Positions 1 to 19,126 of a stretch of DNA of 58,222 bases are shown one piece after another (positions within the stretch are counted from its first letter, which is position 1; each line of letters begins with the position of its first letter). A model generated the notes under the pieces. The model had not been told where the DNA came from. It made no database searches and saw only the letters and a list, made by a program, of their open reading frames with translations. The stretch is from a virus (Duplodnaviria; Caudoviricetes). Location of the stretch: the IMG/VR virus record IMGVR_UViG_3300045978_000161, positions 1-58,222 of that record; one strand, 5' to 3'. The position numbers were made by a program, and so were the translations under genes.

Positions 1-12
1 ATCCGAATTACC
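1..12. repeat. 12-bp terminal direct repeat (left copy); candidate cos site or assembly overlap
   Basis: ATCCGAATTACC at 1-12 is identical to 58211-58222. Confidence 0.9.
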
Positions 13-195
13 CGCAGGATCATCAAGTTACGGAAGAACCTACCCCCCCCTGACGTGAGCTGTGGCCGCGCCTGGTGCTGCGCGAAAAGCCTTTGGTGGA
101 AGGCCTTTTCTCATTCATCGAACAACACAAAGGCATGGTGCGCTTCGTATTCCCATAGATAGGACGCTGTAGATAGGGCATAGCAGGGCCACCCC

Positions 196-969
196 TCATT
201 TAATCCGGGCATTCAAGACAGCGACCCTCAGCCTCTCCCGGAAGCGATCGGGGAAAACGGCGCTGAAAGTCGACTGGGCCAGGGCCGCACCATCGAATCG
301 CTTCCGATATCGGGGTGCGTTGCGCACTACGATATAGACCATCCTGATGGCTGATCCGCTGCCGAAAGATGTGCGTTGAAAAATCGCCTTCGGTAGATGC
401 GAGCCGCGTGTACCGCCTTTCCCTCCGCCACCCATGAAATAAACACCGCGCTTCGATGCATCCTTCTTCCGTGACCGTCGGGCCCGACTCTCAGGAGTCG
501 ATCGGTTCAAAGGGTCACGTGAGGCCTGCAGATCCGACAGCAACGCATTCACGACACCACCAGGGACGTTGCCGAATGCATCCAGCGGAAAGCCCTTCGC
601 AGGGACCAGGAACTCATTGCCATCCAGAAGGCCCGCCCGGCGCAGGAGAAATTCGATGGGCTTCTCCTCTCGCGCGCCGGCGCGGGCCTGCGTCGCCAGG
701 TAGCGAGCCGGCGGCGTTCCGTCTCCTGCCTCGTCGCGCAGGAAAACCTCTGCGACCAGGTTGCTTTTGGTCGCCTTCTTGAACAGCACGGAATTCAGCG
801 TGAATGGCGTCGGCTGCTCGAACACCTGCGGGACCGCCTGCTTCCATGCGTCGCGCACCGCGAACATTGCATCGTTCAACGCCTGCATGGTCGCGAACGG
901 CAGCTGCGTCTCCTCCAGATCCGAAAACTTTCGGACCAGCGCGCTGTCGTCCCATTCGAGCTTCCACAT
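196..969 (-). CDS. Phage morphogenesis protein, putative lambda gpZ-like tail completion protein
   Basis: 257 aa, basic; QLPFATMQALN...PTPFTLNS pattern typical of genes next to cos in gpA-terminase phages; no gpZ equivalent in the neck gene block. Confidence 0.5.
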   Translation of the reverse strand: MWKLEWDDSALVRKFSDLEETQLPFATMQALNDAMFAVRDAWKQAVPQVFEQPTPFTLNSVLFKKATKSNLVAEVFLRDEAGDGTPPARYLATQARAGAREEKPIEFLLRRAGLLDGNEFLVPAKGFPLDAFGNVPGGVVNALLSDLQASRDPLNRSTPESRARRSRKKDASKRGVYFMGGGGKGGTRGSHLPKAIFQRTSFGSGSAIRMVYIVVRNAPRYRKRFDGAALAQSTFSAVFPDRFRERLRVAVLNARIK

Positions 970-978
970 GGCCGGTGC

Positions 979-1704
979 CTACTGCACGCCGAGTCCGGTG
1001 TTGGCCGCCGGCTTCGGGTTCACGGTGAGCGTGACGCCGGCGGTGCGGTTCACCGATCCCGTGATCGTCTTGCTGAGACGCGGGAGCGCGAGATCCGACT
1101 CCGCACCGTTCGCGTTGATCGCGGTCGCGGTGAACCAGTGCGTGCCGAGTGGCAGCTGGGTCCATGCGTAGCTCGTCGCGTTTCGATCGTTAATCAAGCG
1201 CGACTCCTCGCCGGCGCCGTTCACGTCATTCGCGCGGTATACACGAAACTGCAGGAGGCATGGCCCTGTCGCGGTTTGCGAGGTGCAACGCGCGAGTGCC
1301 GAACCATCGGTGTTGGTGGTCGGCGGCGTCCAGCTCACGGTAGCCGTTGTGTCGCCGGGCCACGCGCAGTTGAGCGACAGCTGATATGTGCCCGACGTCG
1401 TGATCGCCGGAAGATCGAGCGTGCCGCTCGCCGGCTTCTGTCCTGTCCAGCTCGCATGGCCGCTCGCGGTGCAGCTGTTGGCCGCGGGTGTCGTCGACCA
1501 GGTGAGCCGCGTCGACAACGAGCCGTTCGCATTCGTGACGCTCGCGCCGAAGGTGACCGATGGATCGGTCTGCGCCATTGCCATCGGTGCGACGAATAGC
1601 ATCAGCAGCAAGAGCAGCAACGATAGGCCGACGACTTTCAAAGCGGAGCAGAGGTGCTGGCCGAAGTGGACCAGCTGTCGGGCATTGAGACCTGCGGATT
1701 GCAT
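979..1704 (-). CDS. Secreted fibronectin type III / Ig-like protein
   Basis: ATG 1704 after GAGGAG; signal peptide ending AMA-Q; ATVSWTPPTTNTDGS...FRVY...WFTATAINANGAES FnIII pattern. Confidence 0.75.
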   Translation of the reverse strand: MQSAGLNARQLVHFGQHLCSALKVVGLSLLLLLLMLFVAPMAMAQTDPSVTFGASVTNANGSLSTRLTWSTTPAANSCTASGHASWTGQKPASGTLDLPAITTSGTYQLSLNCAWPGDTTATVSWTPPTTNTDGSALARCTSQTATGPCLLQFRVYRANDVNGAGEESRLINDRNATSYAWTQLPLGTHWFTATAINANGAESDLALPRLSKTITGSVNRTAGVTLTVNPKPAANTGLGVQ

Positions 1705-1744
1705 GTGGAATCTCCTCAAGTTGTGGGGATCGCATCGAAATCTT

Positions 1745-1770
1745 CGCCCGCACCTTCCGTGGCACGGGCG
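1745..1770 (-). promoter_or_regulatory. Leader hairpin with C-ACGGAA-G loop (candidate CsrA/RsmA site)
   Basis: Minus strand CGCCCGTGCC-ACGGAA-GGTGCGGGCG, 10-bp stem with 2 G-U pairs; fits CANGGANG. Confidence 0.55.
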
Positions 1771-1883
1771 CCGATCGCTGGACGCGCGTGTCTGGGAGGA
1801 CGAGTGCGCGAGCTGCTTCCCGGCGACCTTGCGCTGGGGAACGCTCGGCAACCTGGGCGCGCGGAGTGTAAGCACAGCCGGCA

Positions 1884-2174
1884 TCAGTTCGCTGACCCCG
1901 CTGTCCGGGCCGTCGCCAGCGAGATTCGGTGGCACTCGGCATGGAGCTGATCGAGAAACTTCGCGCGCCGGTCGGCGGCGTCCGGCATCTGCTCGAGCCG
2001 CAGGAGCAGGATCACGACCGCGGCCGCGCCTGAGGTGTACGACTCGTACATGCGCGCGCGGGTGAAATCATCCTCCGGCACGTATGGCGGTATCGTGAGC
2101 CGGGCATACATCTGCCAGCCCTCCTCAATCGAGTAGGACTCGATGGCGCGCGGCGCCGCGGCCGCGGTGTCCAT
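1884..2174 (-). CDS. Hypothetical protein
   Basis: 96 aa from ATG 2174, overlapping the upstream stop codon. Confidence 0.65.
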   Translation of the reverse strand: MDTAAAAPRAIESYSIEEGWQMYARLTIPPYVPEDDFTRARMYESYTSGAAAVVILLLRLEQMPDAADRRAKFLDQLHAECHRISLATARTAGSAN

Positions 2175-2527
2175 CAGGCAGCTCCAGCCAGCTCGCGCTG
2201 GCGGTCGATCATCGTGAGCACGCCGGCGGAGTAGTGATGCACGCGATCGAGCTTGTTCCAGTACTCGCGCCGGGTAATCTTCACGCCGGCGATGAACTCC
2301 GCCTCGCGCTGCTTCTGCTGCGCGATCTGCGAGCTCGTGTAGTGCACGACCGCGGTGGCGAACAGATCGAACGGCAGCTTGGAGAGCGCGAACCGATACG
2401 GATCCTCGCTGCACTGCTCGAGATCCTGGAAGCGTCGCATGGTCGTCGTGTCGTGCACCGCGCCGTGCCGTTCCAGGAATTCTTTCCCCCAGGATCGCAC
2501 CGCGGCCTTGCCCGCCTCATCGTTCAT
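2174..2527 (-). CDS. Hypothetical protein
   Basis: 117 aa, GGAG SD, coupled to neighbours. Confidence 0.7.
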   Translation of the reverse strand: MNDEAGKAAVRSWGKEFLERHGAVHDTTTMRRFQDLEQCSEDPYRFALSKLPFDLFATAVVHYTSSQIAQQKQREAEFIAGVKITRREYWNKLDRVHHYSAGVLTMIDRQRELAGAA

Positions 2528-3287
2528 TGTCGTTGTCTCCGGATGGTTTCAGGATGCCGCTGGTCATCAGCCGCAAGATCGAATCGCACATGAGACGCTC
2601 CGCCGCCTCGCTGATCGAGTTGCCGTAGAAGCCCGACGCGACGAGCAGCTCTAACTTCTCGCGCACCCGCGGCCCGGGCTTGAACATGACGCGCCCACTC
2701 CACCGATCGGCGAGCTGCTCGAAGCTCGTGACCGGCAGCCGATCGTCGATGATGCCGCGCGCTGCGAGCGGATCTGCGAGCACCGTGGTCTTGCCGACTG
2801 CGGCGTGCTTCTCGACGAGCACGTGCGGCTCTGCGGCCGGCGTCGGCGGCGCAGGTTTTGGCGCGGGCGCTGATTTGGCTTTCAGCGGCGGCAGCTTACG
2901 GCAGGCGGCGCAACGTGAAAAATTGCGCCCCGGTCCAGAGCGCAAGTAGTGAGATCGTGGGTGCTCCATTTGGCATCGCGAGCAGGCGACCATCGGTTCA
3001 GCGTGCTCGGTGCCGCCCACGGGTTTCGGCGGATCCTTCTGTCGGGGCGCCGGCGCGGGCGGTGCGGAGTCGCTCGTGCGCTTCGATTGTGCCGGCGGCG
3101 TGCCCGGCAGCGAATAGGTGTCTCCCTGGTCCATCACGATCTGCTTCGTGTGGACCAGGAGGCGCAGTGTCTCGCGGATCAGCGCGCTGTTCATGACGCC
3201 GGCGTTCTGAATGTCCTCGATCGAGCACCGGCCCTCGTTGGCCTTCAGCACGTCGATGATCTTGTTGCCGTGCGTCTGGTAGTTCAC
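2517..3287 (-). CDS. Putative DNA-binding regulator (wHTH-like N-terminus, CxxC-CxxC zinc finger, RHH-like C-terminus)
   Basis: GTG 3287 overlaps the VRR-NUC stop; CSRC...CAAC; Pro-rich linkers. Confidence 0.5.
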   Translation of the reverse strand: MNYQTHGNKIIDVLKANEGRCSIEDIQNAGVMNSALIRETLRLLVHTKQIVMDQGDTYSLPGTPPAQSKRTSDSAPPAPAPRQKDPPKPVGGTEHAEPMVACSRCQMEHPRSHYLRSGPGRNFSRCAACRKLPPLKAKSAPAPKPAPPTPAAEPHVLVEKHAAVGKTTVLADPLAARGIIDDRLPVTSFEQLADRWSGRVMFKPGPRVREKLELLVASGFYGNSISEAAERLMCDSILRLMTSGILKPSGDNDNER

Positions 3288-3814
3288 CGGATGCCGTCCT
3301 GCAGGTAGGTGTTGTCGCGGAAAGATCCGTCGGCGATCGCGCCGCTCATGTCCATGTACGCGCGCACGGCCTGGATCATTTCGAGCGCGCCCTTGCAGAT
3401 CTCCGCGTGATAGCCCCAACGTCGCAGGTCATCGCGCCACGTGGTCTGTTCCGCCTTCGGCGTCTCGCCTTCTCGCTTTGCTTCGAGATAAAGACCATGA
3501 AACCGACCGGAGGGAGTGTGGATCACGTAGTCGGGGAAGCCGGGCTTCATGCCGATCGACACCATGACCGCGGTCATCGCTCCCGCCTTGCCGCGCTCAT
3601 TCGGGATCTTCGCGAGCCGGCGGAAGATGGTCTCGCCCTGGAAGGTCACGAGCTGGGTCCACGCGATGAAGGTCCGACACTCGTCGGTCTCCAGCGGCGG
3701 TGCCGGATGCTGTGCCTTCCGCCGGCCCTGCTGCGTCGAGTGCGCAGCGTGCCGTTTCAACGGCGGGCGGTTGAGAGCGTCGAGATCTGCCTGGGTCATG
3801 CGCCGGCGTTTCAT
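3284..3814 (-). CDS. VRR-NUC domain nuclease (resolvase-like)
   Basis: IPNE...GMKPGFPD...GLYLEAK...EQ..W...L...GY motifs. Confidence 0.85.
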   Translation of the reverse strand: MKRRRMTQADLDALNRPPLKRHAAHSTQQGRRKAQHPAPPLETDECRTFIAWTQLVTFQGETIFRRLAKIPNERGKAGAMTAVMVSIGMKPGFPDYVIHTPSGRFHGLYLEAKREGETPKAEQTTWRDDLRRWGYHAEICKGALEMIQAVRAYMDMSGAIADGSFRDNTYLQDGIR

Positions 3815-3987
3815 CGCAGGTAGATGTACCCGATCGAGAAGCCGGCGAGCGCGACCAGGATGCAGTGGGCCACGAGCCCGGAGATCAGCCAGCGCATGTG
3901 GCCCTCGCGCAGCTGCATGAACGCGCCGATGGCCGCGGTCCCGTGGAACGCGATCACCAGGCCGAGCGTTATCTTGACGATGAGCAT
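3811..3987 (-). CDS. Small two-TM membrane protein
   Basis: 58 aa, GGGAGG SD before ATG 3987, two hydrophobic segments. Confidence 0.6.
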   Translation of the reverse strand: MLIVKITLGLVIAFHGTAAIGAFMQLREGHMRWLISGLVAHCILVALAGFSIGYIYLR

Positions 3988-4029
3988 GTTCGATCCTCCC
4001 CAGTTGGCCGGTGCATCCCCACAGCTCAT

Positions 4030-4380
4030 GCCCAGCTTTTCCACCTGATATCCACAGCCTCAAAAAGATTCGCGCGCGCGCGTCCGGATCCAGAGGTGCC
4101 AATCCGAAGTGCTACACGAGGCGTTCCAAATCCGCTGGGAGCTACCACTCCAGAGTGCAGATTTTCAGAGCGGAGGCGCACGGGTCCCTACCCACTCATG
4201 TGGCCGGACCTCGTGCGCCTGCCGGATCTGTTCAGACCCCCGTCGCATCAACGCAGCCGTCTCACCTGTTGCGGTGACGACTACCTGGTTCGCGGACAAC
4301 ACCGCGGGGCGCCGGGTCCAAGTACCCTCCGGCTCGCTTTCGCCCCAGGCCTGGCCCTCCCCGCCAGGCACTTCACTCCT
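4030..4380. other. Structured non-coding region; candidate replication origin and/or ncRNA
   Basis: No convincing ORF; stems at 4174-4220 and 4349-4369; two 1-mismatch DnaA-box-like 9-mers (4037-4045, 4048-4056); (CG)6 at 4071-4082. Confidence 0.4.
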
Positions 4381-4482
4381 AGCGAGATAAACGCTGCTGG
4401 CCGGACAGGGACCGACCGTGGTGACAGTTGGACCAGCAACGGCCGCGCGCGAACGCGCGGCGCAGGAAATATGCGGCCGGGC

Positions 4483-4911
4483 TCATGAGTTGAGCCCCTG
4501 GGCCTTCAATGTGGCAACGATATGCACGGACACCCGCCCTTCATGCGTGCGCTCGTGCATCACCAAGCCGTGCACCTCGTCGGGATGCTGCTCGAGCAGC
4601 TCCAGGACGACGCGCAGCTGCGCGAGCGCGCGGATCCGCATGTCGTCGCTGCGCGGCGCGCGCACGGTCATGTCGAAGCGTGGATCGGCCAGCGCGGCGA
4701 TCTGCGATGCCGTGACCAGCGGGTTCTCGATGAGTGGCTTCAGCAGCTCCGCGATCGCCGCGCTTGACCAGTGCACCGCGCTCACACCTTCGCAGGCGCG
4801 TATATCGACATCGAGCTGTCGCAGGGCGGTGCAGATGGCCTGCAGGCGGCCGAGAAGGGTGTCGGCCGCGGCCAATGCCACGGGCCCGTCTGCGGGCGTC
4901 TCAGGCGCCAT
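4483..4911 (-). CDS. Hypothetical protein with short TerS-like segment
   Basis: About 142 aa (start 4911 or 4920); DEVHGLVMHERT-HEG resembles TerS DLMHGLVVQVRTAHEG. Confidence 0.6.
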   Translation of the reverse strand: MAPETPADGPVALAAADTLLGRLQAICTALRQLDVDIRACEGVSAVHWSSAAIAELLKPLIENPLVTASQIAALADPRFDMTVRAPRSDDMRIRALAQLRVVLELLEQHPDEVHGLVMHERTHEGRVSVHIVATLKAQGLNS

Positions 4912-5137
4912 GCGGGGCATCCAGAGCGGGGACTTCGGTGGATCCACGTGGAACCAGGCGAAGGGCGTTGCGCGCACTGCGCGTCGCCGCCAGCTCCAGG
5001 GCCGACGGCGTGACGGGCGCACCGCACTGACAGCACTCCTCGCCCGGCTCGCCGATGGCCTGCTGATTCGGCGAGCAGCACCGGCAGTAATTGCCGGGCT
5101 GCTGGTAGGCGAGCGGTGGCGCGTCAACGTCCGCCAA
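4901..5137 (-). CDS. Small Cys-rich zinc-binding protein
   Basis: CRCC...CCQC; TTG start at 5137 inferred. Confidence 0.5.
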   Translation of the reverse strand: MADVDAPPLAYQQPGNYCRCCSPNQQAIGEPGEECCQCGAPVTPSALELAATRSARNALRLVPRGSTEVPALDAPHGA

Positions 5138-5363
5138 TGATCTTCTCCACGGTCGCGCGGTTGCGCTGCAGGACGTCCAGGATGGCGCGCGCCCCACTGC
5201 CCTCGATCGAGCCGTTGATCACGATGGTGATGGGCGCGGCCACGGGCGCGACCTTGGCGGGCAGCGCGGCCGCGGGGACTGAGAGCTCCGGCGCCGCGGC
5301 GCCGACGAGTGGCAGGGCCGCAGGTGCGGCGACGAGGCCACCGAGAAGCTGGCGACGGTTCAT
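5124..5363 (-). CDS. Twin-Arg leader peptide fused to a tape-measure C-terminus mimic
   Basis: MNRRQLL leader; last 24 aa are 11/24 identical, ungapped, to the last 24 aa of the tape measure. Confidence 0.8.
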   Translation of the reverse strand: MNRRQLLGGLVAAPAALPLVGAAAPELSVPAAALPAKVAPVAAPITIVINGSIEGSGARAILDVLQRNRATVEKIIGGR

Positions 5364-5584
5364 GCGTACACCTCGCGCGCGAGAAGTTCGTAGGGCATCT
5401 GCAGGCTTTCCGCGATCTGCCGAATCATCGTCGTGACGAATGCCGAGTAGGCTTCGGCGTTTTCGTAGGCGTCGAGATCGGCGAGCCGCTGGAGCAGCGC
5501 CGGCGAACCAGGCGAGGGCGCGAGCATCTGCGCCGGTGCGGTGGCGCCGGCGATCGCACCGAGGATCAGTTCGCGGCGGTTCAT
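5360..5584 (-). CDS. Twin-Arg leader peptide fused to a portal-segment mimic
   Basis: MNRRELI leader; YSAFVTTMIRQIAESLQMPYELL is 8/23 identical, ungapped, to portal YDPFFMAVCRQIGAALEIPLDEL. Confidence 0.75.
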   Translation of the reverse strand: MNRRELILGAIAGATAPAQMLAPSPGSPALLQRLADLDAYENAEAYSAFVTTMIRQIAESLQMPYELLAREVYA

Positions 5585-5811
5585 GGCAGTTCCACCGTCT
5601 GCGTGGCGCCCGGCACCACGGCGCCGAAGCCCAGGCGGCTGCAGCGGATGTTCTTGCCGGGGTTATCGAACATCGCCGCGTGCAACGTCACGCGATCGTT
5701 GGCCTCGTGTACCGCGAGCTGCTGGCCCTGCACCACCGTCATCGGTGCCTGCGCGAGCGCGATGTGGCGCGCGTCCAGGCCTGCGGCCGCGGCCTTCTCG
5801 TAACGATTCAT
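5581..5811 (-). CDS. Hypothetical protein
   Basis: 76 aa, ATGA-coupled at both ends. Confidence 0.65.
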   Translation of the reverse strand: MNRYEKAAAAGLDARHIALAQAPMTVVQGQQLAVHEANDRVTLHAAMFDNPGKNIRCSRLGFGAVVPGATQTVELP

Positions 5812-5981
5812 GCCACTGGCACCGGGGCCGCTGCCGAACGACCCCGGGCCTTGTCTGCAGACTTATGACTTCGGACATCCCGTGCTTGGCCGTCGGCCGG
5901 GATGTGAGCCTTGCGGCTCGACCTGATCAGCCGGTGCGCATGGCGGCACACCTGATACACGCTGCAGCGCCCGCGGATCAT
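5808..5981 (-). CDS. Possible small basic ORF overlapping structured RNA
   Basis: 57 aa, ATGA overlaps at both ends, atypical composition, three hairpins inside. Confidence 0.35.
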   Translation of the reverse strand: MIRGRCSVYQVCRHAHRLIRSSRKAHIPADGQARDVRSHKSADKARGRSAAAPVPVA

Positions 5982-6292
5982 TCGCGCCTTCCCGCGGGAA
6001 ACCCTTCTTGGGGCACGGCATCTGGCCCCTGTGCGCAAGGGTTAGATTCTTTCGCGGCGCGCTGCTTTGCGAGCGCCGCCTGTAGTTTGGGCCAATCGGC
6101 CTGGCGCACGTAGCAGATGCGTGCGGCGTGGTCGATCTCGAAGCGCTGCGCGCGAGGTTCGCGCGGATGGCCTGGCGCGACCGGGATCATGGTGAAGTCG
6201 GCGAGCGTCGGATCCGGTGCCTTGACCACCGCGGCGGGTTCCTCCGCGGGGACAATGCTCGCCGCGATCGCGGCCCGGATCAGGTGGTTCAC
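5978..6292 (-). CDS. Hypothetical protein with tail-tip-like motif
   Basis: 104 aa; KAPDPTLADFTMIPVAPGHP resembles tail-tip KPRSAALEDFDVPVAEEDRP. Confidence 0.7.
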   Translation of the reverse strand: MNHLIRAAIAASIVPAEEPAAVVKAPDPTLADFTMIPVAPGHPREPRAQRFEIDHAARICYVRQADWPKLQAALAKQRAAKESNPCAQGPDAVPQEGFPAGRRE

Positions 6293-6375
6293 TTCTTGGC
6301 CTTTGACGCGAGCAGAAGCGACACACCAAGCACCAGCAGGATGTAGGCGAGGTTGATCCAGCCGTCGCGTGTCAT
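6289..6375 (-). CDS. 28-aa hydrophobic peptide mimicking the tail-tip N-terminal helix
   Basis: MTRDGWINLAYILLVLGVSLLLASKAKK; start overlaps the cro stop, stop overlaps the next start; 9/21 identical, ungapped, to tail-tip residues 20-40. Confidence 0.7.
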   Translation of the reverse strand: MTRDGWINLAYILLVLGVSLLLASKAKK

Positions 6376-6677
6376 GGTGCGCCGAGTCCGTAGATGTCGG
6401 GCCGCAGATGCCGGCGCGTCACGGCCATGTCCGTGAGGATCTCGACGTGGCTCCAGTAGCGCTCGTCGATGAATTGGCCTTCGCTCACCCACCAGGCGAT
6501 CGCCTGCACGGTGACGGGTCGCTCGCCGGCGGACTCCATGCGCGTGCGCAGCCGGCGCGCGAATTCGGCCTGCGAGCCGCACGCCGTAAAGGCGCGGCGC
6601 AGGGCAATTCTTACCTGCTCCTGCGCCTGGTCGAGATTCACACCGGGGAAGATCTTCTGGTTTTCGGCCAGTGCCAT
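6372..6677 (-). CDS. Cro/YdaS-like HTH transcriptional regulator
   Basis: GSQAEFARRL...VTVQAIAWW...VTRRHLRPDIY; first gene at a divergent promoter region. Confidence 0.85.
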   Translation of the reverse strand: MALAENQKIFPGVNLDQAQEQVRIALRRAFTACGSQAEFARRLRTRMESAGERPVTVQAIAWWVSEGQFIDERYWSHVEILTDMAVTRRHLRPDIYGLGAP

Positions 6678-6679
6678 GT

Positions 6680-6850
6680 GCAGCTTTTACACCTGAGCCC
6701 GCAACAGACTCAAGGCGCACCTGTGAAATTCTTTCCGCGCCGCGTTGCAAGTAGGTATTGACAGGCCCCTCCGACAGCGAATCCCTGCCCCTATTTTCAA
6801 TTGTCAAGGCGCGTGGTAAATATCGGGCATGTTGCAGAGTGCGCACAGGT
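6680..6850. promoter_or_regulatory. Divergent promoter region
   Basis: AT-richer gap between divergent operons; TTGACA on + (6758-6763) and on - (6807-6802); TTGAGT-18-TAAAAG just before the cro ATG. Confidence 0.55.
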
Positions 6851-7026
6851 CGATGCTCCTGAAGCTCGCGCGGAATCACGCGATCGAGCTGCGCGGCCGT
6901 CTGTCAGTGGCGCGTCAAGTTCTCGGCCCGGCGCACCCCAAAGTCGGCGAGATCAAGAGCGAGCTGCTGCTCGCGGTCGATGCTGTGCGCACTCTGTACA
7001 CTGAACCCGAAAGGGTGGCCGCGTGA
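6829..7026 (+). CDS. Hypothetical protein
   Basis: Short ORF, first gene of the rightward operon; start uncertain. Confidence 0.45.
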   Translation: MLQSAHRSMLLKLARNHAIELRGRLSVARQVLGPAHPKVGEIKSELLLAVDAVRTLYTEPERVAA

Positions 7027-7053
7027 ACGATCCACGCCTCGCGGCTCGTTGAT

Positions 7054-7089
7054 GGCCCGCCGGCGGATCTGGGGATCTGTCGGCGGGCC
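7054..7089 (+). promoter_or_regulatory. 16-bp RNA hairpin in intergenic leader
   Basis: GGCCCGCCGGCGGATC-TGGG-GATCTGTCGGCGGGCC; two G-U pairs work only on the + strand; no U tract. Confidence 0.6.
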
Positions 7090-7112
7090 CCTGACGTAGA
7101 ACAACACGAAAC

Positions 7113-7122
7113 CCCAGGAGGG
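7113..7122 (+). repeat. Start-associated motif CCCAGGAGGG (first of 9 exact copies)
   Basis: Also at 15537, 19992, 21103, 21611, 23109, 23378, 51816 and 54188; each lies 3-7 nt before a start codon. Confidence 0.9.
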
Positions 7123-7125
7123 CAA

Positions 7126-7473
7126 ATGCCAGAGCCACGCCTTGAATGCCGCGACTGCGGTGAGTCGCTAGTAGTCTGCGATCGCTGCGTCGACGATGAT
7201 GATGTCGCCTCCTCCGCCTATCCACTCACGAGCGAAGCGCGGCGCGTTTTCCACATCGGGATATGCCCCTATCATGGTGCGCTCGCCAGGCGGTGCCCGA
7301 GGTGCGTACCGACGCATCTGATCGAGCCGGTCGACAACGGCCGCGTTGGTCCATCTCCGGAAATTCCCGATCGAATTATTCGCGCAGGTATGGTGTGCCT
7401 GCTCGTCGGCTTCGTCGCCGGCGTGCTGCTCACGCTGCTCTTGCTGCCGCAGATCGCGGCGAGGATGCACTGA
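7126..7473 (+). CDS. Cys-rich protein with C-terminal TM helix
   Basis: Multiple CxxC motifs; hydrophobic tail; strong SD. Confidence 0.7.
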   Translation: MPEPRLECRDCGESLVVCDRCVDDDDVASSAYPLTSEARRVFHIGICPYHGALARRCPRCVPTHLIEPVDNGRVGPSPEIPDRIIRAGMVCLLVGFVAGVLLTLLLLPQIAARMH

Positions 7474-7682
7474 TGGGCTTCATGCTGGCGCACGGCGAGT
7501 GCTACGGGTGCAAGCGCTTTTTCAGTTTCAACCCGGATCTGGTCCCATCTATTCGGATCAACGGCAACCGCGAGCCGGTGTGCCAGAGCTGCGTCGACGC
7601 GGCGAATCCTCAGCGACTCAAGAATGGCCTGCCGCCGATCGAGGTGCTGCCCGGCGCCTACGATGCCCAGGAGTGCGGATGA
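7473..7682 (+). CDS. Small zinc-binding hypothetical protein
   Basis: CYGC...CQSC, 69 aa, TGATG coupling. Confidence 0.7.
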   Translation: MGFMLAHGECYGCKRFFSFNPDLVPSIRINGNREPVCQSCVDAANPQRLKNGLPPIEVLPGAYDAQECG

Positions 7683-8008
7683 GCCGCCGCTGCGATCGCT
7701 GCAAACGGCTCCTCGTGTTCTCGCGCGAGGAGTGCAAGTGCAAGAGATTCGAGGTTCAGAGCGATCCGAGTCCGTACAACCAGGAGTGGACAAAGCCGCC
7801 TGACAAGGGCGCGTGGACCGAGATCTACGCGGCCGATGCGGAAGCCGCGGCCGAGAAGTTCTGCGAGCGATACGACTGCGACGGCGAGTACACGATCCTC
7901 AAAGCGCAGCGCGGCCACGTGTATGTGCGCGACGATGGCGGGACCGTGACGCGGTGGTTCATCGAAGCCGAAGCGGTGCCCACCTACTACGCGCATGAGG
8001 TGAAGTGA
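7679..8008 (+). CDS. Hypothetical protein
   Basis: 109 aa, ATGA coupling. Confidence 0.7.
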   Translation: MSRRCDRCKRLLVFSREECKCKRFEVQSDPSPYNQEWTKPPDKGAWTEIYAADAEAAAEKFCERYDCDGEYTILKAQRGHVYVRDDGGTVTRWFIEAEAVPTYYAHEVK

Positions 8009-8220
8009 TGCCGCCGCTACTCGACCAGGCCGGACAATTCCGCTGCCCGCTGTGCGATTGGCGCACCGACAGCACGGGGCTTTCCGCGGCCGCGGCCGCC
8101 GTGCTCGAGCGCGCCGCGCACGATCATCTGTCGGAGCATTCGATCGCGAGCTGGATCGGGAAGATCCGCCAGCTCGAAAGAACGCGCGACGAGCTGCAGG
8201 CGAAGGTGGCGCATGGCTGA
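8008..8220 (+). CDS. C2H2-type zinc finger protein
   Basis: CPLC...HLSEH. Confidence 0.6.
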   Translation: MPPLLDQAGQFRCPLCDWRTDSTGLSAAAAAVLERAAHDHLSEHSIASWIGKIRQLERTRDELQAKVAHG

Positions 8221-8485
8221 GATCGGTCACGTGAGGACCAGTCCGGAGGAGTGCGCGCGCATGATTGCCGCGATGGACAACGGCACCCTGCAGGCTCAGG
8301 AGCTGGTGCAGAAGGGTGCGATCGACGCGCTGCAGATGCTCCAGCTGCTTGGCGTCGACGAGATCAACGTCAACAACATGCTCCACAGCCTGCGGCGCCT
8401 GGCGAAGATCATCAGCAAGGAGACGAAGCGGCGCGGCCTGTGTGTCGTCGACGTCTCCCCGCCTATTCGTCCCGGGCAGGCGTGA
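8213..8485 (+). CDS. Hypothetical protein
   Basis: 90 aa, in operon. Confidence 0.65.
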   Translation: MAEIGHVRTSPEECARMIAAMDNGTLQAQELVQKGAIDALQMLQLLGVDEINVNNMLHSLRRLAKIISKETKRRGLCVVDVSPPIRPGQA

Positions 8486-8718
8486 GCGACGCGGCCGGAT
8501 CTTTCACGATCTGGGTGGTGTACGACCATCCGCGCGACTATCCGCACTTCTATGTCGCGCGCCGCTTCGTGGTCCTGCCCGGGCGAACCGAACCGACCAG
8601 CGATGTGATGCAGTCGGGCACACTCGACACCATTCGCCAGGAGCTGCACAAGCGCGGCCTGCACGCGATCGGCCGGCACTGCAGCGATGATCCCAAAATC
8701 GTGGAGACGTGGATTTGA
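8482..8718 (+). CDS. Conserved phage hypothetical protein
   Basis: IWVVYDHPRDYP..YVARRF...DDPKIVETW pattern; GTGA coupling. Confidence 0.7.
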   Translation: MSDAAGSFTIWVVYDHPRDYPHFYVARRFVVLPGRTEPTSDVMQSGTLDTIRQELHKRGLHAIGRHCSDDPKIVETWI

Positions 8719-9158
8719 AAGCACTAACTATCTGCCAGCCGTATGCGCACCTCATCGCCGCCGGCAAGAAGCGTGTCGAGAACCGCACCTGGTCTACCGC
8801 GCACCGCGGCCTGATCTATATCCACGCCGGCAAGTCGCGCGAATGGCTGGATATCGAAGGCGATCGCGATGCCGAGTACGACATCCCGCTGAAGTCCATG
8901 GCCTTCGGCGCGGTGGTGGCGATCGCAGATCTCGTCGCGTGCGTGCATATCAATTCGGTGAGGGCCGGAACTTACGATCGGCAATTCCCGTGGCTGCAGA
9001 AGCATGAGCACACCTCCGGGCCGTGGTGCTGGATCGTCGATCACGTCAATCCGATCGGGCCCTGGCCGTACACCGGCGCGCAAGGCCTGTTCGAGATCAA
9101 TGACGACAAGCTCGATGAGATCGCGACGAGGGTTATCAACCAGGGGAGCAAGCGCTGA
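8715..9158 (+). CDS. ASCH domain protein
   Basis: KALTICQPYAHLI..GKKRVENRTW...IHAGK...GAQGLF; TTG 8715 or GTG 8709 start. Confidence 0.9.
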   Translation: MKALTICQPYAHLIAAGKKRVENRTWSTAHRGLIYIHAGKSREWLDIEGDRDAEYDIPLKSMAFGAVVAIADLVACVHINSVRAGTYDRQFPWLQKHEHTSGPWCWIVDHVNPIGPWPYTGAQGLFEINDDKLDEIATRVINQGSKR

Positions 9159-9670
9159 TGGCTGACTGGAAAGACGAAGCTCGAAACCGAGTCGCGCGCC
9201 GGGTGTTCCTGGCCGCCGAGAAACTGTGCGATGAGCCGATGGATACGAACGAGCTGGTTGGGCTGCTGCGCGCCGCCGGCCTTGAGATCGAACGCCTGGT
9301 GCCGCCCGGCTGGAAGTGCTTCCACTGCGGCGAGACGTTTACTGAGGAACCGCAGGCGCTTGCCCACTTCGGCCATGCGGAAGGGCACCAACCAGGTTGC
9401 GTTGAGAAGCTGACAGCTCCGGAGAAAAATCTGGTGCTGGCGCTGCGGAAGGTGTGCGACGAGTTCCACCGACTGCAGATTCAGGTGTCGGAGGAGATCA
9501 CCAACGACACCTACTTTTATTCCAGGCTGCGCGCGTCCCTCGCGTCCATGCCGAAGTTCAAGACGTGCATTTCGCTGCACGACGTTTTCATGCTGTTCGA
9601 TTCGATGGAAGGTCGCGCGCTCGCGGCCGAGGAGCGTCTGCAGCGTCTCGACCAGGCGCCGGAGCGCTGA
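9158..9670 (+). CDS. Zinc-finger hypothetical protein
   Basis: WKCFHCGETF...AHFG. Confidence 0.65.
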   Translation: MADWKDEARNRVARRVFLAAEKLCDEPMDTNELVGLLRAAGLEIERLVPPGWKCFHCGETFTEEPQALAHFGHAEGHQPGCVEKLTAPEKNLVLALRKVCDEFHRLQIQVSEEITNDTYFYSRLRASLASMPKFKTCISLHDVFMLFDSMEGRALAAEERLQRLDQAPER

Positions 9671-10191
9671 TGGAGCGCGGCACCTATCCAGGTTATCGCG
9701 CCGAAAAGTGCAACGGCTGTGGGCTTTGCTGCCTGACTGCGCCTTGCTCGATTTCGCAGCAGTTTGGACTCTGGCGCCACGGGCGATGCATCGCGCTCCA
9801 GTCGGCGACCGACGGTGTTGCCACCCGTTACTTCTGCGGGGTGCTCACCGCGCCGGCGACGATCAGCAAGCGACTGGCCGCGCTCACTCAGGAGGCGCGC
9901 GACGATGCGATCGGTGTCGGCCGCGGGTGCGACCACCGGGCGGCCTGGTCGATCCAGGAGGCGGTTGCGCTTCTGCAGACCCGGAATATCGCCGATGACT
10001 ATTACAAGTTCGCCGGCGACAGCTACCCGCGCGGCTGCGTGCTGCATACGCCCGACGGGCGCCACTGGCTCGTGTACCAGGGCGAGAAGGGCGCGGAGCC
10101 GACGGTGAGCCCCATGGGCCTGTCGACGGGGATCGACGTATCACGCGAGGTGCCGCTGTCACAGTGGATAGATAGAGGAGGGGTTCGATGA
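9670..10191 (+). CDS. YkgJ-like cysteine-cluster protein
   Basis: CNGCGLCC...C...C...C. Confidence 0.6.
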   Translation: MERGTYPGYRAEKCNGCGLCCLTAPCSISQQFGLWRHGRCIALQSATDGVATRYFCGVLTAPATISKRLAALTQEARDDAIGVGRGCDHRAAWSIQEAVALLQTRNIADDYYKFAGDSYPRGCVLHTPDGRHWLVYQGEKGAEPTVSPMGLSTGIDVSREVPLSQWIDRGGVR

Positions 10192-10391
10192 AGATTGAGA
10201 GCGAGTTCCGGATCCTGGAGATCGGCCGCGCGCCGGCGGGCGAGGGACGCACGTCCGAGGTGGTGCTGGAGTCGATCGACGGCCAGCGCTTGAAGGTGAT
10301 CGGTCTCGACGACGACCAGGCGCGCGAGTTGGGCGCGCTGTTCAGCGAGCCCGTCAAGGTGTCGCTGGAGATCCGCAAGAGGAATGTCTGA
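10188..10391 (+). CDS. Hypothetical protein
   Basis: 67 aa, GGAGG SD. Confidence 0.7.
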   Translation: MKIESEFRILEIGRAPAGEGRTSEVVLESIDGQRLKVIGLDDDQARELGALFSEPVKVSLEIRKRNV

Positions 10392-11248
10392 TGGAGAACA
10401 CGAAGATCGAGTGGGCCACGCACACCCTGAACTGGTGGACCGGCTGCGAGCATGTCTCGCCGGCGTGCGATGGGTGCTACGCGGAGGCCTGGGCGAAGCG
10501 CGCGGGCCGTAACTTCGCGGAGCGCCGGCAGACGAGTGGCACCATTCACAAACTACCTTTCAAGTGGGAGCGCGAGGCGATCGCGACTGGAGACCGGCCC
10601 TATGTGTTCGTCAATTCGCTATCGGACTTCTTCGACAACAAGGTGCCTGACGAGTGGCGAGAGTCTTTTTTCTCGACTGCGCGGCAAACTCCCCACGTCA
10701 CCTATCTGCTGCTTACCAAGCGGATCGGCAATGCCGCGCGGATGCTTCCGCCAGGCGGTCCTGCCGAATGGCCGAACCTGTGGCTCGGATCCACGGTGGT
10801 CACTCCGGAGGAGGCAGCCCGCGATATCCCGAAGCTGCTGCGAACGCCGGCCGCGATTCATTTCCTGTCGATCGAGCCGATGCTGGCCGCGATGAATATC
10901 GACCGCTGGCTCTGGGACGATGACCAGCGCGAGGGCCACGTCACCGGGCTCGATTGGGTGATCGCCGGCGGCGAGTCCGGAGGTCACGCCAGGCCGCTGA
11001 ACCCCGACTGGATCCGCGGATTGCGCGACCAGTGCAGCGAGGCCGGCGTCGACTTCTTTTTCAAGCAGTGGGGCGAGTGGGCGCCGCCGGATGCGGTGCC
11101 GCCGGAGAAGTGGCACGACCGGCACACCTACGACAGCGGCGCGTACATGATGCGCGTCGGGAAGGATGTCGCCGGCGCGAAGCTCGATGGGTGTCTGCTC
11201 CGTGCGCGGCCGCCGCACCAAACTCCTTCGATCAGGCTTGCTCACTAA
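10391..11248 (+). CDS. DUF5131 / phage Gp37-Gp68 family protein (radical-SAM-like)
   Basis: TKIEW...GCEHVSPACDGCYA...FVNSLSDFF...LLLTKR...GGESG...FFKQWG. Confidence 0.92.
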   Translation: MENTKIEWATHTLNWWTGCEHVSPACDGCYAEAWAKRAGRNFAERRQTSGTIHKLPFKWEREAIATGDRPYVFVNSLSDFFDNKVPDEWRESFFSTARQTPHVTYLLLTKRIGNAARMLPPGGPAEWPNLWLGSTVVTPEEAARDIPKLLRTPAAIHFLSIEPMLAAMNIDRWLWDDDQREGHVTGLDWVIAGGESGGHARPLNPDWIRGLRDQCSEAGVDFFFKQWGEWAPPDAVPPEKWHDRHTYDSGAYMMRVGKDVAGAKLDGCLLRARPPHQTPSIRLAH

Positions 11249-11260
11249 AGAGGAATCACC

Positions 11261-12016
11261 ATGGCCGATGATGCTTACAAACTGAACCTTGCCGTCGAGA
11301 CGACGTGCATGGTCAAGCGGAAGATGGCGACCACGCGCGAGAAGCTAGACAACGACACCGAAATGACGGTGTGCTGCATCTGGATCAAAGGCGTGCGCGT
11401 GTCTCGAGAAGCGGCGGAGGAGCTGGCCGGGCTTCCGATCGGATCCTTCGGCCCGCTGTTCAACGAGGCTGGAATGCCGCGCGAGCGCATGTCGATGCTG
11501 TTCCCGAAGCGCGAGCTGCTCGGCACCGGCGTGTTCGATCACCGCAAAGAGAGCGGTGCATCGCTCGCGAAGCTGGAAGTAACTGGCGCAGTTGTCGCCG
11601 ACATGCGTTTCAATCTCGACGTGCCGGACGGCGACGGGCCGACGGTGCTGATGTCGTACTCGGTTATCTGGAAGGCCGCCGGCGACGAGGTGGATCACGT
11701 CCGCCATCTGCTCGGCCAGAAGTCCTGCTTCATGAAACTGAAGTTCACGACGCCACCGACCCAGGTGCCGCTGGCGATCGACACCGACAGCCGGCCCCTT
11801 GCTGACAAGCCCGCCGGCGATCGCGCGAAGCTCGATCGCAAGCGCCAGGCCGCCGGCGAAGGTGCGGAGCCGAAGCCGCGCGGCGCCGGCGCCGTGGAGC
11901 AGCTGGAGAAGAAACTCGATCGCGGGCCCGCGGTGGGCGCGAAGTTCACGGCCGAAGCGCGAGCGGCTGCGGCGAAGAATCCCCGGCGCGAGAAGCCGCC
12001 GGCGAGGAAAAAGTAA
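11261..12016 (+). CDS. Hypothetical protein with basic C-terminal tail
   Basis: 251 aa, GAGGA SD. Confidence 0.7.
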   Translation: MADDAYKLNLAVETTCMVKRKMATTREKLDNDTEMTVCCIWIKGVRVSREAAEELAGLPIGSFGPLFNEAGMPRERMSMLFPKRELLGTGVFDHRKESGASLAKLEVTGAVVADMRFNLDVPDGDGPTVLMSYSVIWKAAGDEVDHVRHLLGQKSCFMKLKFTTPPTQVPLAIDTDSRPLADKPAGDRAKLDRKRQAAGEGAEPKPRGAGAVEQLEKKLDRGPAVGAKFTAEARAAAAKNPRREKPPARKK

Positions 12017-12291
12017 TGCTGACGATCAAACGCAAGGTGGGCCAGGGGATCCGCGTCGGCAAGACGGTGCAGATCTCCGTGCACCAGCTCAGTAACCGCG
12101 GCGCGCATCTGGTGATCAAGGCGACGGGTCTCGAATTCGAGGAGGTGCTGTTCCAGTCGCACACCTGGTCGGCGGTGATCGACGGCCATCTGCTGTCGAT
12201 CACGCTGAACGACATCGTGCGCGGCGAGGCGGTGCTGGCGTGTGAAGCGAACCGCGAGCTGCGGATCGACCGGGAGGAGGTTGCATCGTGA
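12016..12291 (+). CDS. Divergent CsrA-like protein with internal duplication
   Basis: N-terminal MLTIKRKVGQGIRVG..VQISV and C-terminal GEAVLACEANRELRIDREEV match the two ends of CsrA, with about 40 extra aa between. Confidence 0.7.
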   Translation: MLTIKRKVGQGIRVGKTVQISVHQLSNRGAHLVIKATGLEFEEVLFQSHTWSAVIDGHLLSITLNDIVRGEAVLACEANRELRIDREEVAS

Positions 12292-12551
12292 GAAAGATCA
12301 TTCGCGTGGATCTCGACGTCGGCATGAATGTGCCGATCAGCGTGGCGAAGGGCGCGGTGCTGCTGCACGTCGGGTGGCGGAACGGGCCGGCGATGTACTT
12401 CCAGGTCGACACCGAGAAGGAGGTCGTGCAGCGCCAGGTCAACTGGTATCGCAACGAGGATCCACTGCCGGCGAAGGTCGGCAACTATCTCGGCACGGTG
12501 ACGGCGCCGGAAACGCTGATCACGTATCACGCATTCGAGGTGCGGCCATGA
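12288..12551 (+). CDS. Conserved phage hypothetical protein
   Basis: 87 aa; GAVLLHVG...YLGTV...HAFE. Confidence 0.65.
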   Translation: MRKIIRVDLDVGMNVPISVAKGAVLLHVGWRNGPAMYFQVDTEKEVVQRQVNWYRNEDPLPAKVGNYLGTVTAPETLITYHAFEVRP

Positions 12552-14302: not shown

Positions 14303-14320
14303 ACCACAGAAGGAATACGT

Positions 14321-14713
14321 ATGGAACCTAAGTATTGGGATATCGGAGATGAGGCCCTCTTAAACCTGGTGCCAGCTCCAGAGCCACCGACTGATCCGGG
14401 TGTAGAGCTTCGGGAGCGGATCCGCGATCAGATAGACAAGAATGTCCGCGAGGCTTTGCTGCATTTCTTTCACGAGTCCACTACCTGTGGCCTTGGGGTC
14501 GATGGCGTTTATGTCGTGATCCACACGGATGTTGAGGAGGATGAGGAGGGAGAGGACAGATTCATCCGTAAATTTCCTATCAGAGAGTTGCTTGAGGACT
14601 TTGTTGCGAACTTCAAGGATGAAGATGGATCTGCATCCGAACTCTCTGAACTGTCGGCGCTATTAACAGAAATGTCAGGGCGCGTTAAACAACTTGCAGC
14701 GTCACGTAGTTAG
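14321..14713 (+). CDS. Acidic hypothetical protein, lower GC
   Basis: 130 aa, AAGGA SD, many A/T-ending codons. Confidence 0.7.
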   Translation: MEPKYWDIGDEALLNLVPAPEPPTDPGVELRERIRDQIDKNVREALLHFFHESTTCGLGVDGVYVVIHTDVEEDEEGEDRFIRKFPIRELLEDFVANFKDEDGSASELSELSALLTEMSGRVKQLAASRS

Positions 14714-14722
14714 GGAGGCACG

Positions 14723-15532: not shown

Positions 15533-15553
15533 CTAACCCAGGAGGGCAATACC

Positions 15554-17617: not shown

Positions 17618-17618
17618 G

Positions 17619-18340: not shown

Positions 18341-18357
18341 CTTCTCAGGGAGGAGGC

Positions 18358-18873: not shown

Positions 18874-18883
18874 GGGAACGCCA

Positions 18884-19078: not shown

Positions 19079-19083
19079 GGAGA

Positions 19084-19114
19084 GGGCCGCCGGGATAAGG
19101 GGACCCGGCGGCCC
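19084..19114. terminator. Hairpin between convergent operons
   Basis: GGGCCGCCGGG-N9-CCCGGCGGCCC, 11-bp stem; U tract weak. Confidence 0.55.
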
Positions 19115-19126
19115 GTCCTGTGCGGT

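Follow-up and report, generated by a model that had tools for sequence, protein, structure and literature searches.

A phage orphan gene joining a Tat-like leader to a diverged tape-measure C-terminal module

HK97 gp15, Ltp of phage TP-J34 and lactococcal Sie are small phage envelope proteins, encoded outside the structural operon, that target the infection step involving the tape-measure protein (TMP). To our knowledge, none of the three is derived from TMP. We analysed ORF79 (P0003; 5124-5363, minus strand; ATG start, 79 aa and stop), a chimeric orphan gene in a phage record (IMGVR_UViG_3300045978_000161), of which the whole stretch of 58,222 nucleotides is called the window below. An action on TMP-dependent DNA entry, as in gp15, Ltp and Sie, is proposed here for ORF79, which has no sequence similarity to these proteins and no PADLOC or PHROG match.

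The TMP end has been described structurally in phage JBD30, where, according to the excerpts of PMC11445458, the final 33 residues assemble as a trimeric coiled coil that the upper baseplate protein retains within the baseplate core, docking of the TMP end is the initiating contact of tail assembly, and the TMP C-terminal domain is released first on infection. SNIPE, as described in the excerpts of PMC13190303, provides a precedent for TMP-directed exclusion and for TMP contacts at the inner membrane. The Tai systems consist of small phage or satellite proteins sabotaging the tail assembly of other phages, and some phages carry a counter-measure (PMC11364771, excerpts). Small phage- or satellite-encoded proteins aimed at rival phages would be the common feature of Tai and ORF79. 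According to the same excerpts, phages escape Tai through mutations of the central tail fibre or needle rather than of TMP, and Tai is a conserved family with 57 homologues (PMC11364771), whereas ORF79 lacks known orthologues and bears a signal-like leader.

The nearest relatives of ORF79 in sequence are the C-terminal domains of JBD30 gp46 (8RK3) and the Chi TMP (8VJH), with which its last 23-34 residues align in the same stop register. A helix is predicted in this stretch, and it retains G, N and hydrophobic residues where these are conserved. The JBD30 and Chi proteins are 800-1400 aa long, against 79 aa, and carry an R-I-V-N-V-x-D-P strand motif that ORF79 lacks; unlike TMPs, ORF79 bears a hydrophobic RR leader and sits in the early region, outside the tail operon and ~30 kb from the tail genes. 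With Tat signal peptides (PF10518, TIGR01409) it has in common N-R-R-Q-L-L, a mildly hydrophobic stretch of 20 residues rich in Ala and Gly, and AxA motifs, but it scores below the curated cut-offs and has Pro and Glu right after the first AxA.

The ORF79 gene and its locus

No start codon precedes the ORF79 ATG in its open frame of 187 codons, and a ribosome-binding-site-like GAGGTG lies 5 bases 5' of this ATG. GC by codon position is 0.77/0.54/0.86, compared with 0.70/0.45/0.88 in the TMP gene, and well-supported genes of the window are similar. The pattern is intact in both halves of ORF79, and neither frameshift nor stop interrupts the 79 codons.

Three segments were distinguished, all on the minus strand. 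Codons 1-24 (5292-5363) encode a leader, MNRR followed by 20 uncharged Ala/Gly/Leu/Pro residues and ending in AAA, which is Tat-like or signal-anchor-like. Codons 25-45 (5229-5291) encode a Pro/Ala-rich linker without significant similarity, with pLDDT <60 in the model, and HMMER left it unaligned with the TMP-end profiles. Codons 46-79 (5127-5228) encode a TMP C-terminal module that has diverged and whose assignment is secure over residues 55-77; AlphaFold2 placed a helix at residues 56-77 (block pLDDT 83-91). The ESM Atlas gave no usable match for ORF79, its own model of the protein being poor, and searches of Pfam, PHROG, NCBIfam and PADLOC assigned it to no family at their cut-offs.

ORF79 belongs to a tight string of small same-strand genes, and no terminator-like site was seen from 4483 to 6677. 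The string is headed, beside an AT-rich divergent region, by a YdaS/Cro-type HTH regulator (6372-6677, minus strand; Pfam YdaS_toxin 1.8e-8; phrog_35 transcriptional repressor 3.6e-4). Upstream of ORF79 lies ORF74 (P0004; 5360-5584, minus strand), a fragment of a lambda-family portal gene, with an ATGA overlap with ORF79. Both ORFs begin with ATGAACCGYCGC, encoding MNRR, an exact 12-base match found nowhere else in the window. ORF76 (P0005; 5581-5811, minus strand) starts with MNRY, has an ATGA overlap with ORF74, and no similarity was found for it. Downstream, with a 14-base overlap, follows P0048 (4901-5137, minus strand), a Cys-rich protein of 78 aa with a CxxC...CxxC arrangement and no family found. 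PADLOC-DB returned no families for ORF79, ORF74, ORF76 and six of the seven neighbours tested, and a chance-level match for the HTH neighbour (E 0.051). ORFs are abundant at the locus, with 41 of 30 aa or more overlapping 2.5 kb, and no integrase was found in the window. Two ORFs at 25377-25837, equal in length to ORF79 and ORF74 (79 and 74 aa), turned out to be unrelated to them.

The sequence turned up in soil metagenomes, and 21 DNA runs contained at least half of the sampled words. Metatranscriptome runs X19 and X22-X24 were picked by matching the window sequence itself. Contigs of the soil run X19 covered 30 of 30 bins of window positions 1-20000, and the small runs X22-X24 contained exact contigs at 5358-5571, 5386-5536 and 5862-6451; these contigs carry neither strand nor level and could reflect DNA carry-over. 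The best explanation for ORF79 would be a real, probably translated small gene, lying in an operon that runs leftward on the early or immunity side of a siphophage of the JBD30/Chi type.

Likeness to the tape-measure end

The resident TMP (P0006; 35142-37814, minus strand; 890 aa) was assigned by PHROG tape-measure families (e.g., phrog_2335, 4.2e-29) and by PDB 8rk3_A (E 1e-7). Its last 34 codons (35145-35246, minus strand) are the partner of ORF79 in BLASTP and tblastn. The pairwise BLASTP alignment is gapless, with 13/34 residues identical and 24/34 similar (31.6 bits, E 2e-6), and it contains the 24-residue C-terminal match claimed by the first-pass annotation, 11/24 identical, ungapped and closed by the stop codon in both sequences, exactly as described there. 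The alignment reaches the final residue of both proteins. When both window strands were searched with ORF79 by tblastn, the TMP end had E 4.6e-5 and the runner-up E 1.3, and a HMMER genome search with ORF79 gave E 3.7e-5 for the TMP end. A profile of 12 TMP ends, scanned over the 943 open frames with 30 or more residues, detected the ORF79 frame as the sole non-TMP match (E 4.2e-4; next, E 6.4). A profile of 30 TMP ends of 90 aa each detected residues 55-77 only (E 4.6e-4, 14.8 bits). In an unrelated 2.8-Mb genome, the best match of ORF79 fell on the C-terminal 62 residues of a TMP encoded by a prophage (E 0.01, 43% identity).

These concordant pairwise, tblastn, HMMER, profile and 2.8-Mb-genome matches make a chance resemblance between two Ala/Gly/Arg-rich sequences very unlikely. 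The match is short and its profile score is just ~15-16 bits, which would suit chance, but E ranges from 2e-6 to 4.6e-4 by four methods, the stop codon anchors both sequences, the runner-up window matches all have E>1, and the independent best match is again the TMP end of another phage. The ORF79 C-terminus is thus supported as a homologue of the TMP C-terminal module, securely over only ~23-34 residues.

The helix of ORF79, G-A-R-A-I-L-D-V-L-Q-R-N-R-A-T-V, fits the module motif G-E-[RK]-x-[IL]-[LM]-N-V-[IL]-x-[RK]-N-x-x-x-[VL], with two conserved positions altered (E to A and N to D). Mapping by hand indicated that G57, N68 and the hydrophobic I61/L62/L65/V72/I75/I76 are retained and that R67/R69 stand where JBD30 has K1149/R1151, so that basic residues still occupy baseplate-contacting positions of the JBD30 TMP. 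The first half of the module has fared differently. Its strand motif, R-[IV]-[IV]-N-V-x-D-P with nearly invariant N, D and P, corresponds to K-V-A-P-V-A-A-P in ORF79, where the final P alone is retained; 3/6 nearly invariant columns of the module are kept, and only 2 of the first 17 positions aligned with the resident TMP are identical.

The first-pass annotation regarded the ORF79 end as copied from the resident TMP. ORF79 is no nearer to the resident TMP end (13/43 identical) than to TMP ends from elsewhere (6-14/44), which argues against a recent local copy. The annotation also noted that an upstream ITIV echoes the IRIV of TMP; the pairing appears in the DNA alignment, by way of an 18-base gap, but in two ungapped protein alignments ITIV stands opposite NLVA. 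An N-terminal likeness to the GGLV/linker region of TMP, suggested by eye and by the match in the 2.8-Mb genome (query 15-74), was dropped after the 90-aa profile failed to support it.

The TMP C-terminal module is defined here by alignments and has no Pfam model. It is conserved at TMP ends in 73 phage records, and in each of the nine records opened the match stops where the TMP reading frame stops. We found it in the TMP chains of two solved tail tips, PDB 8RK3 (JBD30) and 8VJH (Chi), which, together with the baseplate-core position in JBD30 (PMC11445458, excerpts), bears out the statement of the earlier annotation that TMP C-termini dock in the tail tip. The tail tip encoded in the window is homologous to those of JBD30 and Chi. 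Its upper baseplate or hub-1 protein (30807-31625, minus strand; Chi gp27, 8vjh_D, E 4.3e-40; JBD30 8rk3_g, E 2.6e-22) is the protein to which the TMP end is expected to dock. A complex prediction with three copies of this protein and three of ORF79 residues 36-79 scored 0.00, was run without controls, and bears neither way. The one related prophage, L012, has a TMP in common with the window (42% identity) and gave no match to the queried tail-tip or early proteins of the window at E<=1e-3.

Besides ORF79, 35 small proteins match the TMP-end profile. Considered as free-standing genes, they were rejected and read as TMP fragments because they carry TMP motifs at their N-termini and come mostly from short contigs. 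An apparently free-standing module copy in phage EKU1 likewise proved to close a frame of 196 codons within a TMP region whose annotation is poor.

The leader and the search for orthologues

ORF79 begins with M-N-R-R-Q-L-L, in which RR is followed by two hydrophobic residues. This leader pattern fits 3 of the 2706 start-to-stop ORFs of the window, and two of its bearers, ORF74 and ORF79, are adjacent. The h-region consists of 20 uncharged residues with a mean Kyte-Doolittle hydropathy of 1.88. The 15-residue hydropathy window peaks at 2.04, compared with 0.24-1.63 in the 35 other small module-bearing proteins, from all of which the RR leader is absent, ORF79 being the sole bearer of the pattern among the 36.

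The first-pass annotation likened the N-terminus to a Tat signal. The rarity of the pattern and the identity of 23/33 residues (ORF79 residues 1-33) with the N-terminus of a metagenomic FAD_binding_4+BBE oxidase (L016) favour this view, while the family models do not: Pfam TAT_signal (PF10518) gave E 0.052 and 14.0 bits, below its cut-off of 22.7, and NCBIfam gave nothing for ORF79 at E<=1. The likeness to real Tat leaders therefore stands as a resemblance in sequence that is sub-threshold. Two AxA motifs are present, A22-A23-A24 followed by P25-E26, and A31-A32-A33 before L34. Pro25 and Glu26 directly after the first AxA are unfavourable for cleavage by signal peptidase I. The ORF74 N-terminus is of the same kind as that of ORF79, yet part of ORF74 can be aligned to portal sequence, so the signal-likeness could also represent drift to an Ala-rich sequence.

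ORF79 is an orphan in every collection searched. Among 138 candidates of 43-139 aa in a homologous-protein search, ORF79 alone was recovered. HMMER against 1.84 billion representatives returned ORF79 itself and two unrelated repetitive proteins (P0007, P0008), and tblastn against 50,697 phage records returned nothing at E<=1. The IMG/VR scan yielded 117 pattern matches, none related to ORF79, and IMG/VR relatives of the neighbours of ORF79 or of TMP were absent or partial. In the JGI metagenome scan, the sole find was the N-terminus of an oxidase resembling the ORF79 leader. A search of 201 genomes of the order to which G001 belongs gave five weak matches, one being the TMP end of G001 and four being unrelated and away from reading-frame ends.

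Possible functions of ORF79

Our best guess, held tentatively, is that ORF79 is an envelope-displayed mimic of the TMP end that excludes incoming phages. ORF79 would be a three-part chimera, with a Tat-type signal or uncleaved anchor (residues 1 to ~24-33), a Pro/Ala spacer, and an amphipathic helix (~52-79) descended from the TMP C-terminal module. The leader would take the helix across the inner membrane, or anchor it there facing outward, and the spacer would extend it into the periplasm. The helix may then meet the TMP end as it emerges from an incoming phage whose tail is of the same type, or else the host or tail-tip surface that this TMP end engages, and such mimicry would stop TMP-dependent genome entry, resulting in superinfection exclusion. 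Export and target, like translation, are what we infer; the ORF, its coding-like composition, the helix homology and what the module does in relatives have been shown. The mimic reading is supported by the C-terminal homology, the conservation of the module at TMP ends and its presence in solved tail tips, and also by the retained helix positions, the helix prediction, the rare leader and the gene-like context. It is weakened by the lack of an orthologue, which leaves purifying selection unsupported, by the sub-threshold Tat scores and Pro25/Glu26 after AxA, by the loss of the strand motif, by the example of drift in ORF74, and by the lack of an integrase in support of lysogeny. Literature searches found no TMP-derived decoy described among the matches listed, no dominant-negative portal gene fragment of a phage, and, for twin-arginine superinfection exclusion by prophages, nothing relevant among the matches listed.

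Nearly as likely is that the accessory region captured in-frame pieces of foreign structural genes, namely the 3' end of a TMP gene and internal portal pieces, by illegitimate recombination, and that ORF79 is not made, or has no selected function. Such ORFs would stay uninterrupted, given the scarcity of stop codons at 65% GC. The orphan status, the adjoining ORF74 as another structural-gene fragment, the degenerate first half of the module, the resident TMP being no nearer than others and the plentiful ORFs at the locus are all consistent with recombination, and we estimate that an ATGA overlap in the right frame would occur by chance in ~10% of cases. On the other side, the codon-position GC pattern is intact and 79 codons persist without frameshift or stop despite ~70% amino-acid divergence, the start is preceded by GAGGTG, two neighbouring ORFs both show the rare leader pattern, and the 12-base start common to ORF74 and ORF79 is unique in the window. 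Phage genomes also carry little dead DNA. It is unlikely that ORF79 is an expressed small envelope or secreted protein using the TMP-derived helix as a generic oligomerisation element, with a function unrelated to tails. Retention of the coiled-coil-forming helix alone, with the baseplate-proximal strand motif lost, would agree with such a role, but the basic residues at the JBD30 baseplate-contact positions speak for a tail target, and no other function is hinted at by any Pfam, PHROG, NCBIfam or PADLOC family.

Lower still in our ranking, the leader may not be an export signal, and the helix may compete or co-assemble with TMP trimers at the baseplate core, an unlikely mechanism that would poison the tail assembly of co-infecting relatives or, just as doubtfully, delay initiation of the phage's own tails. 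This corresponds to the competitor for the docking site suggested in the first-pass annotation. Docking of the TMP end initiates JBD30 tail assembly (PMC11445458, excerpts), and the Tai systems show that small proteins of mobile elements inhibit tail assembly (PMC11364771, excerpts). Set against this, a cytoplasmic competitor would, without timing or a counter-measure, harm the tails of its own phage as well, this model gives no role to the hydrophobic RR leader or the Pro/Ala spacer, and the Tai proteins of PMC11364771, as far as its excerpts go, are not derived from structural proteins and are escaped by mutations in the central fibre and not in TMP. We consider it improbable that ORF76, ORF74 and ORF79 form a mini-gene array on one plan, a ATGAACCGYCGC start (MNRR), a hydrophobic leader and an interaction segment of a virion protein. 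The segments would then be, with as little confidence, internal portal pieces for ORF74 and, for ORF79, the helix by which TMP docks, and their use, equally speculative, would be as early mimic peptides that sabotage the entry or assembly of like-built rivals or blind host receptors sensing portal and TMP. A pure counter-defence role, in which early-made portal and TMP fragments occupy host sensors of both proteins, appears quite improbable. Avs4/Avs11 and Avs18 sense portal and TMP (PMC13581612, excerpts), SNIPE senses TMP (PMC13190303, excerpts), and the two fragment genes, ORF74 and ORF79, adjoin in an early operon, but binding of a fragment should rather activate a sensor than block it, the presence of any such sensor in the host is unsupported, and Avs18, in the excerpts of PMC13581612, recognises a central TMP segment of ~130 residues, not the C-terminus.

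If ORF79 is a product of recombination without selected function, it would still clearly illustrate how structural-gene fragments persist as open, gene-like ORFs when a phage genome is high in GC, and would call for care in annotation. The portal fragment ORF74 beside it hints at fragment capture as a possible general source of new small genes in phages. If the envelope-mimic reading is true, ORF79 would be the first known exclusion or interference factor made from the target phage protein itself, suggesting that adding an export leader to its own tail docking helix suffices to give a phage a weapon or shield. It would also provide a handle on the poorly understood periplasmic role of the TMP end right after the tail tip opens.

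Tape-measure similarity of the ORF79 C-terminus

On reading we confirmed the 79-residue ORF79 at 5124-5363 (minus strand) and the resemblance, proposed in the first-pass annotation, of its C-terminus to that of the resident tape-measure protein (TMP; 35142-37814, 890 aa): the last 34 residues of each align ungapped, with 13 identical and 24 similar (E 2e-6). Within the window, tblastn with ORF79 detected the TMP end (E 4.6e-5; runner-up E 1.3), HMMER gave E 3.7e-5, and the sole non-TMP match of a 12-TMP-end profile among 943 open frames was the frame of ORF79 (E 4.2e-4; next 6.4). The best match in the 2.8-Mb genome G001, which carries a distantly related prophage, was again an extreme TMP end (E 0.01). 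This prophage of a Steroidobacteraceae MAG (locus L012, 10001-12766 and flanks) has the TMP in common with the window (42% identity), and no queried window tail-tip or early-region protein turned up in the 10 kb to each side, a pattern suggesting that modules are exchanged at the TMP boundary.

The conserved module spans the final 40-45 residues of the resident TMP, with the consensus V-R-I-V-N-V-x-D-P-x-x-x-x-D-Y-L-x-S-S-x-G-E-R-x-I-L-N-V-I-Q-R-N-A-G-A-V-R-x-x-L. The last 110 TMP residues match 73 phage records (Pseudomonas, Stenotrophomonas, Vibrio, Shewanella and Sphaerotilus phages), and in 9 of 9 records inspected the match runs right up to the TMP stop codon. The TMP chains of PDB 8RK3 (JBD30, E 3.2e-13) and 8VJH (Chi, E 1.7e-4) contain the module. 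According to the JBD30 paper, the last 33 TMP residues assemble as a trimeric coiled coil within the core of the baseplate, and the TMP C-terminal domain is proposed to be first out on tip opening (PMC11445458); the T1 paper describes the same TMP-end arrangement for T1, lambda and Chi (PMC11945409). In Pseudomonas phage EKU1 the TMP end lies within a 196-codon frame (2033-2623). The record annotates this frame as several short hypothetical CDSs surrounding a poly-Pro/poly-Gly stretch; the TMP here has probably been mis-annotated or carries a frameshift.

A 90-residue profile of 30 TMP ends aligned ORF79 residues 55-77 only (14.8 bits); judged by alignment, the helix alone is secure as TMP homology, and ORF79 has K-V-A-P-V-A-A-P instead of the strand motif of the TMP module. 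AlphaFold2 (38-row alignment) predicted residues 56-77 to be helical (block pLDDT 83-91) and those upstream to be disordered. By hand mapping, ORF79 R67, N68, R69 and A70 correspond to JBD30 K1149, N1150, R1151 and Q1152, where the resident TMP has K, N, S and V. ORF79 keeps three of six nearly invariant module columns. The segment had been described as copied from the resident TMP; we conclude that it is not a recent copy, because over the 44-residue module ORF79 is identical to this TMP at 13 of 43 positions and to other TMPs at 6-14, and the DNA alignment of the two 3' ends is without long identical runs. In the same alignment TMP ends look much closer to one another than ORF79 is to any. 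The segment is either old, with the helix selectively kept, or from an unknown atypical donor.

The leader and the adjoining portal fragment

ORF79 begins M-N-R-R-Q-L-L, with 20 uncharged residues in all, followed by AAA-PE and a Pro/Ala-rich stretch. Among start-to-stop ORFs in all six frames, a Tat-like pattern (RR, two hydrophobic residues and at least 13 uncharged) was found in 3 of 2706 window ORFs, two of them the adjoining ORF79 and ORF74. ORF79 residues 1-33 are identical at 23 of 33 positions, with two 4-residue gaps, to the start of a metagenomic FAD_binding_4+BBE oxidase of 598 aa, a match whose E-value is not valid database-wide because it was chosen from at least 597 pattern matches. 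FAD cofactor enzymes of this kind are usually Tat-exported. The proposed twin-arginine-like leader falls short of the curated Tat models: ORF79 scored 14.0 bits against a PF10518 cut-off of 22.7 and matched nothing in NCBIfam. Cleavage after A31-A33 would leave a mature peptide almost exactly equal to the module.

ORF74 (5360-5584, minus) has its own ATG and a similar RR-plus-uncharged N-terminus, and shares with ORF79 the 12-base start ATGAACCGYCGC, present in the window in these two exact copies only. From its database matches, ORF74 is a lambda-family portal-gene fragment: it matched Pfam Phage_portal_2 (E 5.7e-5, below cut-off), phrog_537 (E 1.8e-4) and a Fusobacterium phage portal (BLASTP, 23/70 identities, E 1e-9; second segment E 0.001), and tblastn against phages gave 13 records, with the match under a portal CDS in nine, a 'hypothetical protein' in three and one record unannotated. 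Its similarity to the resident portal falls in two separate segments (~277-312 and 372-398), and its 'leader' is partly portal-derived, depending on the alignment.

Gene string and phage context

ORF79 belongs to a tight same-strand gene string: a YdaS/Cro-type HTH gene (6372-6677), a 28-aa hydrophobic peptide, ORF104, a 166-base gap, ORF76 (5581-5811), ORF74, ORF79, a Cys-rich 78-aa ORF and a 143-aa ORF, with no terminator-like site between 4483 and 6677. The string begins where an AT-rich divergent region lies; lambda has its exclusion genes in this position (rexAB after cI). This region (6678-6828) separates the leftward HTH gene from a 65-aa helical ORF that runs rightward (6829-7026), includes TTGACA and looks like a genetic switch. 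The hydrophobic peptide P0049 (6289-6375, minus; 28 codons) may be a short membrane peptide; its ATG overlaps the HTH stop as ATGA, and its own stop overlaps the following ORF's GTG. The Cys-rich ORF (4901-5137, minus; CxxC...CxxC, zinc-ribbon-like) overlaps the ORF79 end by 14 bases; the family search with it gave none, with one weak match to a mycobacteriophage hypothetical protein (E 0.09).

The window (58,222 bases, 65% GC, completeness estimate 81% in the IMG/VR virus record) has lambda-like head genes: a gpA-type terminase (49316-51295), a Phage_portal_2 portal (47365-49095), an S49 protease, a gpD-like decoration protein and a gpE-like capsid protein. By homology its tail tip is of the JBD30/Chi type, with a distal tail protein (31615-33300; 8rk3_U, E 2.6e-88), an upper baseplate/hub-1 protein (30807-31625; Chi gp27, E 4.3e-40; 8rk3_g, E 2.6e-22) and a hub (28618-30807; 8vjh_A, E 1.1e-64; 8rk3_o, E 2e-48). 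In the 729-aa hub ORF (minus), hub similarity covers residues 96-617 and residues 23-91 resemble Chi's separate 76-aa 'Tail assembly protein 1' (E 6e-7); it is either a natural fusion or two genes read as one. No integrase was detected among the window ORFs scanned, and the phage may be integrating, plasmid-like or lytic. A ParB-N domain protein, RadC, DUF3560 and a DNA polymerase III beta-like clamp lie at 15554-17617, 20993-22703 and 51661-53034, and a TET-associated glycosyltransferase domain (PF20691, E 9.6e-7; 55232-56128, minus) hints at DNA hypermodification. The DNA around ORF79 recurs in soil metagenome runs, with at least half of the sampled words in 21 of the 24 rows listed.

Possible functions of ORF79

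How ORF79 is built is settled, with a TMP docking helix joined through a spacer to a signal-like leader. An unrelated function, with the helix serving oligomerisation, is unlikely, and interference with tail assembly in the cytoplasm is a little less likely again. A counter-defence decoy is very improbable. That the TMP resemblance arose by chance is scarcely credible beside the repeated retrieval of TMP ends.

Almost as likely as the mimic reading that we tentatively favour is that ORF79 is non-functional recombination scrap. The adjacent ORF74 and ORF79 both carry virion-protein fragments, which fits a captured-fragment junkyard or a deliberate mimic-peptide set; ORF76 and the other neighbours searched gave no virion-protein similarity. 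No ORF79 orthologue was found in any phage, IMG/VR, metagenome, protein or genome collection searched, and no PADLOC family matches it. The module profile fits 36 proteins of 40-139 aa, and the 35 besides ORF79 look like truncated TMP ends, none with an RR leader. ORF79 has GC by codon position of 0.77/0.54/0.86, as is typical of secure genes in the window, and shows this pattern in both halves, with GAGGTG 5 bases upstream of its ATG, which overlaps the ORF74 stop as ATGA. The favoured reading, possible rather than probable, is that ORF79 would be an exported or membrane-anchored mimic of the TMP end, which may interfere with the TMP-dependent entry of incoming phages.
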